Part shown: positions 1 to 6,625 of the stretch, piece by piece
Layout: every line of letters begins with the position of its first letter
How positions within the stretch are numbered: the stretch's first letter is position 1
DNA from: a virus
Taxonomy: Duplodnaviria > Heunggongvirae > Uroviricota > Caudoviricetes
DNA length: 8,645 bases
Reading direction: 5' to 3' (one strand)
Virus record (IMG/VR): IMGVR_UViG_2548876856_000015
Notes under the pieces: generated by a model
Database searches by the model: none
Seen by the model: the letters and a program-made list of their open reading frames with translations, nothing else
Told to the model about the DNA's origin: nothing
Position numbers and translations under genes: made by a program

Positions 1-471
1 CTAGCAGTCAAACTCAACAACTAATTCTTCGGTAATATCGCTTAGGGAAACAATGCCTTTATATCCAGTCTCAACATACGGGACAACCCTCTCGCCCCAT
101 GCTTTTTCTTCTTTCCAAGAAGTCCATGGAATCAGTTTCTCGAACTTGCTTTCGTGAAGAAACAGTATTGAAATCTTATCACCTTGTTCGCGTTTAAGGA
201 TCTGAGTTGGAAAACATTTATAAGCATGCTCTTTCCAGAATCTAGTCCCATAGCATCTATAGTCGAAAAAAGACACGCAATTGCGCTGCCTAAAAAAACC
301 ATTAGATGTATTTCCAAATCTTGAAAATTGCAATAATTCCGAATTTGGAACCAAAGCTCCAGATTGTTTTATAAGGAGCATATTAGCTGCAGTAGTAACA
401 TGAAACACTTTTCCTGAAAGTGCAGATAAAATATCGTCGTTATACGTGATTTTGAGTTGATTGATTATCAT
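1..471 (-). CDS. Hypothetical accessory protein (AT-rich cargo ORF next to the int 3' end)
   Basis: ORF track 1..483 minus, 160 aa. The first codon at 483 is TTG; the first ATG is at 471..469 (MIINQ...). Stop codon occupies window positions 1-3. Visibly more AT-rich than the neighbouring int. No clear Shine-Dalgarno. No family recognised with confidence. Confidence 0.45.
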   Translation of the reverse strand: MIINQLKITYNDDILSALSGKVFHVTTAANMLLIKQSGALVPNSELLQFSRFGNTSNGFFRQRNCVSFFDYRCYGTRFWKEHAYKCFPTQILKREQGDKISILFLHESKFEKLIPWTSWKEEKAWGERVVPYVETGYKGIVSLSDITEELVVEFDC

Positions 472-571
472 ATTTTTTATCAAGTAACTATTGGCCTGTT
501 GCTGTTCATTAGCATAGCATGATGACTGCTATTGGCTGTGAGTTCAAGGTGGCGTTGGGACTCTTAAATAC

Positions 572-1699
572 TCACAACGCTACTTTGCTCCATCCTTTGC
601 CTCGGTCATCATGGTAACGATCGGTTTGCTGCTGGGTTTTATGGCCCAGTAACTTTCTGGTATCAACCCCTTGTTCCTTGTAAAGACGTTCAGATAAAGA
701 TCTTTGTTCATGAAAAGTTGCAGGAGTTCCAGTACCCCAATCAATTTCTGCCAGATCACGTGCCTTGCTAAAGTTCATCGTTAGTGTATTAGCTTTTACC
801 TGTGCGCCACGTTCAGCCTGTGATGTAGTACGGAAAAAATGCACTAAGTATGGGCTGACTGCGTAGTCACGGCAGCGAGCTACTACATCACGTAAACACC
901 AGTTGATAGCATTCAAACGTAAAGAAAGAGGGATAGCGATTTTGCTCCCGGTCTTTTCCTGAATGACGTGAAGATGATCCTCCCAAATATCACTAAATTT
1001 CATTTTGGATATATCTCCTAAACGCTGCCCAGTGACCAAAGCTAGGAGCATGGCATTTCCCATATAACGATGAGCGGCGTCTGCGATATCGAATATTTTT
1101 TTCCATTCTTCTAGGCTGAGGCGTTGACGGCTAATTTTCCTTCTGGGTTGCTTCGTTGCAAGAGCAGGGTTATACCCTGGTGGAACTTCGCCGTAATGCT
1201 GTGCTTCCTTAAACACATCGATCAATACAGACCTTACGACCTGGGCCATTCTAGGCTGTCCAGCAGAGATATACTCATCAAGTAATTGTGCTATATCTCT
1301 GACATCAACGGCTGATATCAACTTCAGTCCTGCTCGTTCCCTGAGCAAGGATACTGGTTTGGCTTTCTGTTTATAGGTGTTGAGCTTTATATCGCCACTT
1401 TTCAGTCTGTCTTCCTGGATTGCTTGATAGCGATCTAACCAGGTTGACGTTGTGATTGCTTTTCCTTTGCTGGTTGCGATCCTGTCACTGATAGCTAGAA
1501 TCTGCCGGGTTCTTTGCTCAGCTAGGCGTGTATTGGCCTCAGTGGCAATAGCAATGGCTTCAGCTTCGTTTGTGCCCAAAGAATGAAACTTCCCGGTCAC
1601 TGGATGCTTATATCGCCAATAAACTTTATTTACTTTTCTGCTATAGAGCGGATACAAGTTCGGGACTGAAACATTATTCTTACGTGGTCTGGCTGCCAT
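572..1699 (-). CDS. int: Tyrosine site-specific integrase (lambda Int family)
   Basis: 375 aa. N-terminus VPNLYPLY..YWRYKHPVTGKFHSLG resembles lambda Int LPPNLYIR..YCYRDPRTGKEFGLG (from memory). C-terminal catalytic region LLGHKTQQQTDRYHDDRG carries the His and Tyr of tyrosine recombinases. ATG at 1699..1697. Overlapped by xis. Confidence 0.9.
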   Translation of the reverse strand: MAARPRKNNVSVPNLYPLYSRKVNKVYWRYKHPVTGKFHSLGTNEAEAIAIATEANTRLAEQRTRQILAISDRIATSKGKAITTSTWLDRYQAIQEDRLKSGDIKLNTYKQKAKPVSLLRERAGLKLISAVDVRDIAQLLDEYISAGQPRMAQVVRSVLIDVFKEAQHYGEVPPGYNPALATKQPRRKISRQRLSLEEWKKIFDIADAAHRYMGNAMLLALVTGQRLGDISKMKFSDIWEDHLHVIQEKTGSKIAIPLSLRLNAINWCLRDVVARCRDYAVSPYLVHFFRTTSQAERGAQVKANTLTMNFSKARDLAEIDWGTGTPATFHEQRSLSERLYKEQGVDTRKLLGHKTQQQTDRYHDDRGKGWSKVAL

Positions 1700-1925
1700 T
1701 ACTTAAAATCCTTTGTAGAATAATAGAATCACTTTTCTTAATGACAGGAGTAACTAATTCCCCAACTAACTCTGCGTCCTCACGTACTCGCCATAGTCGA
1801 CCTTGTTTCATTGCCGGTGGACAAAATAAATTCTGCTTAGCATAATGACGCAATGTGGACACACTTGGAGGGTTACTCCTAAATTTTTCCGCAGCCCATT
1901 CCTCAAGTGTCAGCATTTGAAGCAT
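1680..1925 (-). CDS. xis: Excisionase (Xis/AlpA-like small DNA-binding protein)
   Basis: 81 aa, MLQMLTLEEWAAEKFRSNPPSVSTLRHYAKQ...GRLWRVREDA. Small basic protein immediately upstream of int, overlapping it by 20 nt (1680-1699). GAGG lies about 10 nt upstream of the ATG at 1925. Confidence 0.75.
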   Translation of the reverse strand: MLQMLTLEEWAAEKFRSNPPSVSTLRHYAKQNLFCPPAMKQGRLWRVREDAELVGELVTPVIKKSDSIILQRILSNGSQTT

Positions 1926-1979: not shown

Positions 1980-2516
1980 TTAGGATTGCTTATGCATCTT
2001 ATGCAGCTCTTTAAAACGTTCCATAAACATCCCGTAGGCATGGCCCGGTGCCAGTGGAATCACGTTGAACATCTCTGTTGCCGGGATACCTTCCAGTACA
2101 AGCCAGAAAGAGCCATCATCAAGCCCGAGATCGCGGCGTTCGGTTGCCAGCATGATGAGATCGGCATATTTCACGGGTGTACTCATAACTGGGGGTAACC
2201 CGTATTTCTCACGGATTACGGCGTCTATTTTTTCTTCCATCCGTTTATAGTCAGGAAGAAGGCGTTTCAGTGGTGCGGGAATGTCCTGGCAATACGCTTC
2301 TGTTGCATCATGCATTAACGCTTCAAAAGCAAATTCCTGCGGCACCAGCTGGCTGCAAAGAACCGCATGTTGGGCGACGCTGTAGAAGTGCGAAAGATGA
2401 CCGGCAAAGCGGCAGATATTTGAAAGGGAAACCGCGATATCGTTAATAACGATGTCGTCTTTATTTATCCTGTCATAATAAAAATGCTTCCCAGAAAAAG
2501 TTTTAATAAATGACAT
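1980..2516 (-). CDS. HD-domain metal-dependent phosphohydrolase
   Basis: ORF track 1980..2543; the first codon there is GTG. The ATG at 2516..2514 is preceded by GGAGAACAAA and gives a 178-aa product. H...HD signature: SVAQHAVLCS followed by LMHDATEAYCQDIP. Same strand as xis-int, immediately upstream. Confidence 0.75.
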   Translation of the reverse strand: MSFIKTFSGKHFYYDRINKDDIVINDIAVSLSNICRFAGHLSHFYSVAQHAVLCSQLVPQEFAFEALMHDATEAYCQDIPAPLKRLLPDYKRMEEKIDAVIREKYGLPPVMSTPVKYADLIMLATERRDLGLDDGSFWLVLEGIPATEMFNVIPLAPGHAYGMFMERFKELHKMHKQS

Positions 2517-2585
2517 TTTGTTCTCCACGTATATGCGCTGCACCGCGCTGAATTCGGGTAAAAGGAAGCCCTCACCGTCCGGCGA

Positions 2586-2935
2586 TTATTGAGTCGAGTC
2601 AATTACATTTCCATGAATGCCCCCGTAGGGGCGGTTAGTTTCTCCACAAAACAGTGAAGAACACCTGCGGTGGCAGCCGCCTGGATGGATTGGGTTATGA
2701 GCCCGTCGTCCGGTGATGCTCTTCTCTGTTTTGTAAAAAGGACGGTACCAGCCGGAAGCAAGGGTACAAACTGGTACCGTCAAGACTACACACAGCATAA
2801 AGTTGTGGTGCCGGGTGCCTCCCGGTGCCTGGCGAAGGTTGCACACCAGACGGGTGGGTATCCACAGAAGGTCGACTGTCAGCCTCAACCTTAACCCGCG
2901 TGCGCTGAGCCGCATTCACCACAACGCTAAGGATT
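2586..2935. other. GC-rich structured non-coding island (candidate ncRNA or leader/terminator cluster)
   Basis: No ORF with protein-like composition on either strand; track ORFs here overlap each other and are Arg/Cys/Pro-rich. Multiple stems: GCCCC-GTA-GGGGC around 2619-2632; 11-bp perfect inverted repeat GACGGTACCAG / CTGGTACCGTC (2741-2751 and 2771-2781); CCGGG-TGCCT-CCCGG (2811-2825). GGTACC-type motif recurs three times. Confidence 0.3.
2735..2781 (-). terminator. Intrinsic-terminator-like hairpin with T-run (minus strand), between the small ORFs and the HD-xis-int genes
   Basis: On the minus strand: stem GACGGTACCAG (2781-2771), 19-nt loop, stem CTGGTACCGTC (2751-2741), then CTTTTTAC (T-run 2739-2735). 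The loop is long for a canonical terminator. Confidence 0.35.
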
Positions 2936-3035
2936 CTCTCTGGTTGAAAATACTTAGCTGTTATGTGCCTGTCTTTTCACCACTTCAGGCTCGGTGGTAT
3001 CTTGGTGTTTTCATATAGCCAAGAAGGAAATAGTT

Positions 3036-3227
3036 ATGACCAAAGAAGAAAAAATTCTTTATTTATTCCAACTATCGGTTAAGACTCACACTGCATATCA
3101 GACTGCTGCCATGACATCAGATAAAAATTACAGTACGTCAGAAAACCCGATAGACGACATAAGCAAGCTTTACGATAAGTTCGAAGCACTACTCGATAAA
3201 AAGTTTGCTGAGGCTGGGCTTGAGTGA
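3036..3227 (+). CDS. Small hypothetical protein (63 aa)
   Basis: ATG at 3036 preceded by AAGGAAA at 7-nt spacing. Product MTKEEKILYLFQLSVKTHTAYQ...DKFEALLDKKFAEAGLE has natural-looking composition. Stop TGA at 3225-3227. Opposite orientation to the surrounding minus-strand genes. Confidence 0.45.
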   Translation: MTKEEKILYLFQLSVKTHTAYQTAAMTSDKNYSTSENPIDDISKLYDKFEALLDKKFAEAGLE

Positions 3228-3365
3228 TTGTTGAATAATCGACAAAACCCAACTTAAATTTTCGTCAGTGGGCTCGATGCCATGTGCGGTGAGCTCACTT
3301 TTCAAAACTCCAAGCAATTCAGAGCTGATTTTCAATATATCTGCTTGATTTCTAACTATTCCCAC
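3189..3365 (-). CDS. Small hypothetical protein (58 aa from GTG 3365; 68 aa if from ATG 3395)
   Basis: ORF track 3189..3395. The ATG at 3395 has no SD. An in-frame GTG at 3365..3363 is preceded by GGGAGG (3376-3371) with a 5-nt spacer. Product ...VGIVRNQADILKISSELLGVLKSELTAHGIEPTDENLSW.... Overlaps the 3' end of the plus-strand ORF by 39 nt (3189-3227). Confidence 0.45.
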   Translation of the reverse strand: MGIVRNQADILKISSELLGVLKSELTAHGIEPTDENLSWVLSIIQQSLKPSLSKLFIE

Positions 3366-3653
3366 TTTTTCCTCCCTTGGTCTACGCGCGGTCATGTTTT
3401 ACGCCCAAACGACTTCACAGTTATTGTTTAAAATCTGGACTTTCATTTCATACACCTGCTTTAACATGAGTGCCTGGTGGCACAACATGACTCAACGAAT
3501 CATCCTGGACTTCATATGCCCCAGGCGGCTACTTCGTGGGCGTCCTGCCTGTTCGTTTTTGACATTTACTGACTGCTTACGACACATGCACCGTGTTGCA
3601 ACCAGATTTTGTTGTAATCCGGTAGTTGGTCTGGAACAAAAGATAAAATTAAA

Positions 3654-5674: not shown

Positions 5675-5694
5675 AGGTCGGTCATGAGCACTAA
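5515..5694 (+). CDS. Alternative-frame small ORF (about 59 aa, TTG start), or the C-terminal part of a frameshifted gene
   Basis: The frame open from 5494 to the TAA at 5692-5694 encodes ...[64 protein letters not shown] at 5501-5506 lies 8 nt before TTG 5515. Its stop overlaps the O-like ATG at 5684. Confidence 0.3.
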
Positions 5695-6625
5695 ATTAAC
5701 CGGCTATGTATGGGATGGTTGCGCAGCGTCAGGCATGAAATTATCCAGCGTGGCAATTATGGCACGCCTGGCTGATTTCAGTAATGACGAAGGTGTGTGC
5801 TGGCCATCAATTGAAACCATTGCCCGCCAGATTGGCGCGGGGATGAGTACCGTCAGAACGGCTATCGCACGGCTGGAAGCAGAAGGCTGGTTAACGCGTA
5901 AGGCGCGTCGCCAGGGTAACCGCAATGCGTCGAATGTTTATCAGCTTAACGTTGCGAAGCTTCAGGCTGCGGCTTTTTCTCAACTGTCAGATTCTGACCC
6001 GTCAAAATCTGACGCATCAAAATCTGACCCGTCAAAATTTGATGCGTCGAAATCTGGCAAAAAAGCGGGTTTTCACCCGTCAGAATCTGGCGGGGATCCG
6101 TCAGTAAAATCAAAACATGATCCGTCAGATAAAAAAACTTCTCGTCCGGACGCTTCGCAACCGGACACGCAGACGGCTGAACAGGATTTTTTAACTCGCC
6201 ATCCTGATGCGGTTGTATTCAGCCCTAAAAAGCGCCAGTGGGGGACGCAGGATGATTTGACCTGCGCACAGTGGCTCTGGAAAAAAATCATCGCCCTGTA
6301 CGAGCAGGCTGCCGAATGTGACGGCGAGGTGGTTCGTCCCAAAGAACCGAACTGGACAGCCTGGGCAAACGAAATTCGCCTGATGTGTGTGCAGGATGGT
6401 CGTACTCACAAACAAATCTGCGAGATGTACAGCCGCGTCAGCCGCGATCCGTTCTGGTGCCGTAACGTGCTCAGCCCGTCGAAGCTGCGGGAAAAATGGG
6501 ATGAGCTTTCCCTGCGCTTATCGCCGTCCGTAAGCACGTACACCGAAAAACGCGAAGACCCGTACTTCAAATCCAGTTACGACAATGTGGACTACAGCCA
6601 GATCCCGGCAGGATTCAGGGGGTGA
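5684..6625 (+). CDS. Replication initiator protein (lambda O-like; N-terminal winged-helix/HTH domain; ori iterons inside the gene)
   Basis: 313 aa. N-terminal HTH segment SVAIMARLADFSNDEGVCWPSIETIARQIGAGMSTVRTAIARLEAEGWL. Internal 5-aa periodic low-complexity region encoded by tandem 15-bp DNA repeats. Position after the cII-like gene. SD GAGG at 5675-5678. Confidence 0.7.
   Translation: MSTKLTGYVWDGCAASGMKLSSVAIMARLADFSNDEGVCWPSIETIARQIGAGMSTVRTAIARLEAEGWLTRKARRQGNRNASNVYQLNVAKLQAAAFSQLSDSDPSKSDASKSDPSKFDASKSGKKAGFHPSESGGDPSVKSKHDPSDKKTSRPDASQPDTQTAEQDFLTRHPDAVVFSPKKRQWGTQDDLTCAQWLWKKIIALYEQAAECDGEVVRPKEPNWTAWANEIRLMCVQDGRTHKQICEMYSRVSRDPFWCRNVLSPSKLREKWDELSLRLSPSVSTYTEKREDPYFKSSYDNVDYSQIPAGFRG
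5987..6061. repeat. Five tandem 15-bp direct repeats (candidate ori iterons), followed by a CCGTCAG repeat family and an A-rich tract to about 6136
   Basis: Repeats: TCAGATTCTGACCCG, TCAAAATCTGACGCA, TCAAAATCTGACCCG, TCAAAATTTGATGCG, TCGAAATCTGGCAAA. CCGTCAG recurs at 6077, 6098 and 6122. GATAAAAAAAC at about 6128-6138. Confidence 0.6.

Follow-up and report, generated by a model that had tools for sequence, protein, structure and literature searches.

What does a small HD-domain hydrolase act on, and how would it serve a phage, when its gene lies directly beside the excisionase and integrase genes of a prophage? The question is raised by an 8,645-nucleotide stretch of viral DNA (Caudoviricetes; IMG/VR record IMGVR_UViG_2548876856_000015), the whole of which is referred to here as the window. 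The initial annotation had placed an HD-domain phosphohydrolase with an H...HD signature immediately upstream of xis-int, and on both points it was right: the open reading frame (ORF) and the signature are real, far beyond chance, and the coordinates and strand are correct. It did not recognise that the gene is an ordinary allele of yfdR, already named, annotated as a 5'-deoxynucleotidase in thousands of genomes and studied biochemically in E. coli K-12. We consider it highly likely that this allele encodes a small single-domain HD phosphohydrolase acting on a nucleotide resembling a deoxynucleoside monophosphate (dNMP) during phage replication, and that binding to DnaA is secondary. The gene, its ribosome-binding site and its catalytic codons are placed as follows.

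1980-2516, minus strand: yfdR coding sequence, HD-domain phosphohydrolase of the YfdR/Atu1052 family (PHROG 318)
2523-2526, minus strand: GGAG ribosome-binding site (Shine-Dalgarno), 6 nt 5' of the yfdR ATG, read from the sequence
2160-2369, minus strand: metal-binding and catalytic codons, comprising H50 (2367-2369), H69-D70 (2307-2312), E73, D78 and D119 (2160-2162)

The yfdR reading frame is intact from the ATG at 2516 to the TAA at 1982-1980 (178 codons, 178 residues). A longer form beginning at a GTG (2543), given by ORF prediction, was dropped; the ATG is preferred because a Shine-Dalgarno sequence precedes it and because it agrees with all homologues, the RefSeq entry and every phage homologue beginning there. 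In DNA alignments the GGAG site is kept in K-12 and mEp460. The window protein is 95% identical (168 of 176 residues) to K-12 YfdR (b2361), encoded in the cryptic prophage CPS-53 (KpLE1), the differences being K16R, P139L and eight among the last ten residues (169-178). The two share a length of 178 residues, the 5' leader and ribosome-binding site, a position in the prophage early-left arm and the RefSeq name 'yfdR, 5'-deoxynucleotidase', a label also carried by the seven listed RefSeq records that are 100% identical in DNA. With this full-length identity and a match to the PHROG 318 profile ('deoxyribonucleoside 5' monophosphate phosphatase') at E=1.7e-106, the window gene is a YfdR/PHROG 318 orthologue. 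Proteins about 95% identical are encoded in the functional phages SfII, SfIV, mEp460 and cdtI and in many Stx2 phages; those of SfII (SfII_34), SfIV (gp32) and mEp460 (gp33), all temperate, belong to PHROG 318 and lie in the same cI-to-xis arm. A megablast search with the 537-base gene as query found yfdR in 2969 of 5426 complete E. coli genomes, and the host strain itself holds two further yfdR loci, making three places in the record.

The catalytic signature, H...HD...D, is made up of H50, H69-D70 and D119, accompanied by E73 and D78. In alignments of 60 relatives spanning 41-90% identity H50 is invariant and R36, H69, D70, E73, D78 and D119 show conservation of 90% or more, a level that F37 also reaches in the family. 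Five of the six catalytic residues of E. coli YfbR (H33, H68, D69, E72, D77 and D137) can be placed on YfdR by alignment, H68, D69, E72, D77 and D137 falling on H69, D70, E73, D78 and D119. The sixth, H33, would correspond to H50, a pairing based on pattern and on the invariance of H50 in the family, YfdR R36-F37...H50 being spaced like YfbR R18-W19...H33; the N-terminal regions themselves align poorly because YfdR has an extra β-hairpin. The predicted structure (predicted local distance difference test 97.1, predicted template modelling score 0.92) has the all-α HD fold. Its closest neighbours are nucleoside mono- and triphosphate phosphohydrolases, with scores of 9.6 for PH0347, 9.3 for DatZ, 9.2 for HDDC2, 9.1 for YfbR and 8.8 for both AF1432 and OxsA, whereas alarmone hydrolases, HD-GYP proteins and cyclic GMP-AMP phosphodiesterases reach only 4.1-5.7. 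PDB searches with Foldseek and by sequence gave a concordant picture. The HD superfamily of metal-dependent phosphohydrolases was reportedly described by Aravind and Koonin in 1998; YfdR has both its motif and its fold, and metal-dependent activity is predicted for the window allele from sequence and structural model.

Within this superfamily YfdR sits closest to Atu1052 of Agrobacterium tumefaciens (PDB 2gz4), its nearest solved relative, which it resembles over the full length in both sequence and structure; a profile of the YfdR family gives E-values of 6e-30 against 2gz4 and 4e-4 against YfbR. E. coli YfbR, a 5'-deoxynucleotidase and deoxycytidine monophosphate phosphohydrolase (PDB 2paq), is about 20-23% identical to YfdR, which differs from it in the N-terminal β-hairpin and in its C-terminal half. 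Phage T5 Dmp was considered as the origin of the PHROG 318 name and rejected, as it is not homologous (hhalign probability 0.1%) and belongs to PHROG 415; it is at most a functional analogue. A literature search on prophage HD-domain deoxynucleotidases found nothing, and a search for Atu1052 found no paper mentioning it in the library consulted.

The family is broad. YfdR has 4712 homologues at E<=1e-5 in a 90%-clustered database, a 50%-clustered library gives 22,689 representatives at E<=1e-3, and relatives are carried in 330 phage records, with hosts including Bacillus, Caulobacter, Rhizobium, Vibrio, Pseudomonas and Stenotrophomonas. In virulent phages they are placed in replication and nucleotide-metabolism modules: flanked by a helicase and a DNA polymerase in phiKT, between thymidylate synthase/dihydrofolate reductase and thymidine kinase/DNA polymerase III alpha in Bacillus phage Thrax2, and near a DHH phosphoesterase and ribonuclease H in CcrRogue. 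Several relatives of about 350-410 residues (P0122, P0127, P0128, P0138, P0142 and others) consist of two tandem YfdR modules, and by analogy the single-domain proteins may function as dimers. Domain fusions were otherwise rejected as a clue to function, since the long relatives are tandem duplications only and the one fusion, to DUF6378 in relative P0177, is uninformative.

Taken as an enzyme of the nucleotide pool, YfdR would hold a divalent cation through H50, H69, D70 and D119, the cation would activate a water molecule, and the water would remove the 5'-phosphate of a dNMP or of a nucleotide very similar to one. Expression would come from leftward co-transcription with xis-int, early after prophage induction, and the protein would trim or clean the nucleotide pool while phage DNA replicates. 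The direct statement on activity concerns the K-12 protein, described by Zimmerman et al. (2008), as summarised in PMC4776307, as a nucleotidase like YfbR with affinities much below those of YfbR; we draw on that summary and on the RefSeq product name. Several results weigh against this role. YfdR scores 24.3 bits under the Pfam YfbR-like model (PF12917, cut-off 25.9) and 19.9 under the NCBIfam YfbR equivalog (NF003009), far short of the 122 set as its cut-off; it thus belongs to the HD superfamily, in a distinct YfdR/Atu1052 family, and is not a YfbR orthologue. Atu1052 itself is a chromosomal structural-genomics entry to which no function has been assigned. Loss of yfdQRST by deletion had no effect on replication or on the response to hydroxyurea (PMC4776307), and deletion of yfdR in an engineered strain did not raise the yield of cytidine monophosphate, unlike three other deletions (PMC10870394). 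Lastly, no yfdR promoter is established, because promoter-like sites occur at chance frequency 5' of the gene.

A different account, rather unlikely in our view, makes the relevant function non-enzymatic: YfdR would bind DnaA domain I at the patch around Phe46 and inhibit replication by competing with DiaA and DnaB, the HD site being secondary. It draws on the work of Noguchi and Katayama (2016), who isolated yfdQ-yfdR-yfdS-yfdT because, in multicopy, it suppresses hda-185 overinitiation, and who found that purified K-12 YfdR binds DnaA domains I-II in a Phe46-dependent manner, domain I being the target, and moderately competes with or displaces DiaA and DnaB (PMC4776307; repeated in the later reviews PMC5448010 and PMC12122000). 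The product of the window gene shares 95% identity with this DnaA-binding protein, and most of the differences are confined to the last ten residues. However, the block to initiation in vivo needed, in multicopy, yfdQ and yfdR plus either yfdS or yfdT (yfdQRT or yfdQRS), the authors concede that it may be an artefact of overexpression, and the deletion was without phenotype (PMC4776307). In the window, moreover, yfdQ, yfdS and yfdT are not adjacent to yfdR. The catalytic residues, for their part, are at least 90% kept in phages of Bacillus, Caulobacter, Rhizobium, Vibrio and further hosts that differ in DnaA domain I, which points to selection on catalysis. This conservation in phages whose hosts have unrelated DnaA N-termini, combined with the phage gene context, makes a nucleotide-directed enzymatic role the most probable ancestral one, and DnaA binding is probably a secondary property added in enterobacterial YfdR alleles.

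If the protein is an enzyme, its substrate could still be of another class. YfdR might be a triphosphohydrolase or pyrophosphohydrolase of (deoxy)nucleoside triphosphates that depletes one nucleotide, like DatZ of cyanophage S-2L, and not a monophosphatase. We hold this to be improbable: the match to PHROG 7076 is about 100 orders of magnitude weaker than that to PHROG 318, YfbR itself matches PHROG 7076 far better (E=4e-31), so that the weak match of YfdR reflects superfamily kinship only, and the K-12 activity in the PMC4776307 summary is YfbR-like. Degradation of a signalling nucleotide, either (p)ppGpp or a cyclic di- or oligonucleotide, for counter-defence or host manipulation has a very slight chance of being correct, although the HD superfamily does include such enzymes. 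YfdR has neither a GYP motif nor a close fold match to HD-GYP proteins or small alarmone hydrolases, and a role in defence or counter-defence was rejected, as PADLOC gave no match. The initial annotation had named nucleotides and nucleotide second messengers alike as candidate substrates; the former agree with the nearest folds, and the latter are the least supported, given the distance of the HD-GYP and alarmone folds and the PADLOC result. It is also conceivable, at long odds, that the lone window allele is a dual-function factor whose HD site acts on a nucleotide other than an ordinary dNMP and whose contact with DnaA domain I pauses initiation at induction.

A recombination joint lies within the 3' end of yfdR itself.

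1980-2012, minus strand: mosaic joint in the last ~10 yfdR codons, from DNA alignment, where residues 169-178 differ from K-12
2517-2636, minus strand: conserved yfdR 5' leader with a GC-rich hairpin (2618-2633), common to K-12 CPS-53, mEp460 and SfII in alignments

DNA homology to K-12 CPS-53 and mEp460 extends from the leader hairpin, about 115 nt before the ATG, to about codon 168 and then stops; the last ~10 codons differ and lead into xisE, hence the placing of the joint. On its 5' side the window matches yfdR of K-12, mEp460 and SfII, and on its 3' side xisE is found here and yfdS there, yfdR overlapping yfdS in both CPS-53 and mEp460. The yfdR-xisE junction occurs in 109 genomes, compared with the 2969 that carry yfdR. 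The yfdQ-yfdR-yfdS-yfdT cluster of Noguchi and Katayama (2016) is thus not present in the window: no ORF for yfdQ (DUF2303) upstream, or for yfdS (DUF551) or yfdT downstream, flanks yfdR in either the window or the identical RefSeq locus, and this yfdR copy therefore lacks the partners needed for the published in vivo phenotype. In K-12 the order is yfdP-yfdQ-yfdR-yfdS-yfdT-torI, whereas in the window a region resembling the prophage small RNA (sRNA) family STnc100 replaces yfdQ and an e14-type xisE-intE pair at icd abuts yfdR. In SfII, SfIV and mEp460, unlike the window, yfdS- and yfdT-like genes still separate yfdR from xis and the integrases are different ones; SfII is 98.5% identical to the window between yfdR and cI, the position of yfdQ in K-12.

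The leader differs from those of SfII, K-12 and mEp460 by a 5-bp GACTC duplication at about 2590-2602 on the minus strand. By pushing TGGAAA and AATAAT further apart, to a spacing of 17 nt, it creates the sole minus-strand promoter-like site 5' of yfdR (2613-2585, 9 of 12 matches), which may be meaningless in view of the chance frequency of such sites in this region. About 215 nt 5' of yfdR, on the same strand, lies the STnc100-like region (RF02076; 2732-2955), which scores 44.7 bits (gathering threshold 47, E=2.7e-7) in a match that covers the full length of the model (1-206) and ends in a GGTACC...GGTACC hairpin followed by a T-run. The SfII counterpart gives the same Rfam match at 39.5 bits. 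The stretch is annotated as a 'frameshifted hypothetical protein' in RefSeq and as ORF SfII_35 in SfII, and from its sequence it may be an sRNA gene that has been wrongly labelled as protein-coding. STnc100 has been linked to PasD sRNAs in a 2026 preprint (10.64898/2026.05.13.724894).

Downstream, 54 bp separate yfdR from xis-int on the same strand.

1680-1925, minus strand: xisE-type excisionase directly downstream of yfdR (Pfam Exc E=1.7e-11; RefSeq xisE)
572-1699, minus strand: intE-type tyrosine integrase with lambda-type arm-binding and catalytic domains (Arm-DNA-bind_1 E=1.7e-37; Phage_integrase E=2e-16; RefSeq intE beside icd)

The element is an e14-like lambdoid prophage integrated at icd. 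The ESBL 15 locus, identical to the window, runs from icd through two unannotated cargo genes, intE, xisE, yfdR and the 'frameshifted hypothetical', and continues with a cI-like repressor, cro, ymfL (cII-like), an O-like replication protein, PerC, a LexA-like protein, RusA and KilA-N; identical RefSeq loci, judged by sequence, argue against a mis-assembled window. The expectation in the initial annotation that exo/bet/gam-type recombination genes normally sit at this position holds for lambda, and none lies between cI and xis in this prophage.

In e14-type prophages the interval between icd and intE houses cargo or defence genes. Here it contains an ORF of 156 or 160 residues at window positions 1-483 on the minus strand, ending at window base 1, and an ORF of 1040 residues outside the window (L001:1475-4597, plus strand). 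Neither has a Pfam or PADLOC match, and the 160-residue ORF also has none in PHROG or NCBIfam. Two small convergent ORFs, 3189-3395 on the minus strand and 2994-3227 on the plus strand, occupy the interval from the STnc100-like region to the cI terminator (3725-3708) and match PHROGs 15476 and 2605, both of unknown function; PADLOC gave no match for the small ORFs adjoining yfdR. The O-like replication gene (5684-6625) holds 4.3 tandem copies of the 15-bp unit TCTGACCCGTCAAAA at 5993-6056 on the plus strand, which encode a repetitive SDPSK stretch of the protein and, by analogy with lambda, look like origin iterons inside an initiator gene; an Rfam mir-5880 match at these repeats was rejected as spurious.

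As an allele of a named and studied gene, the window yfdR has in itself little discovery value, and nothing specific to the window makes the question of its substrate or of its benefit to the phage more tractable. Were the dual-function possibility to prove true, YfdR would be a phage-encoded enzyme that doubles as an inhibitor of replication initiation. The YfdR/Atu1052 family, with its more than 22,000 clusters at 50% identity, reaches well beyond this locus, and many phages carry a member of it inside their replication and nucleotide-metabolism modules.
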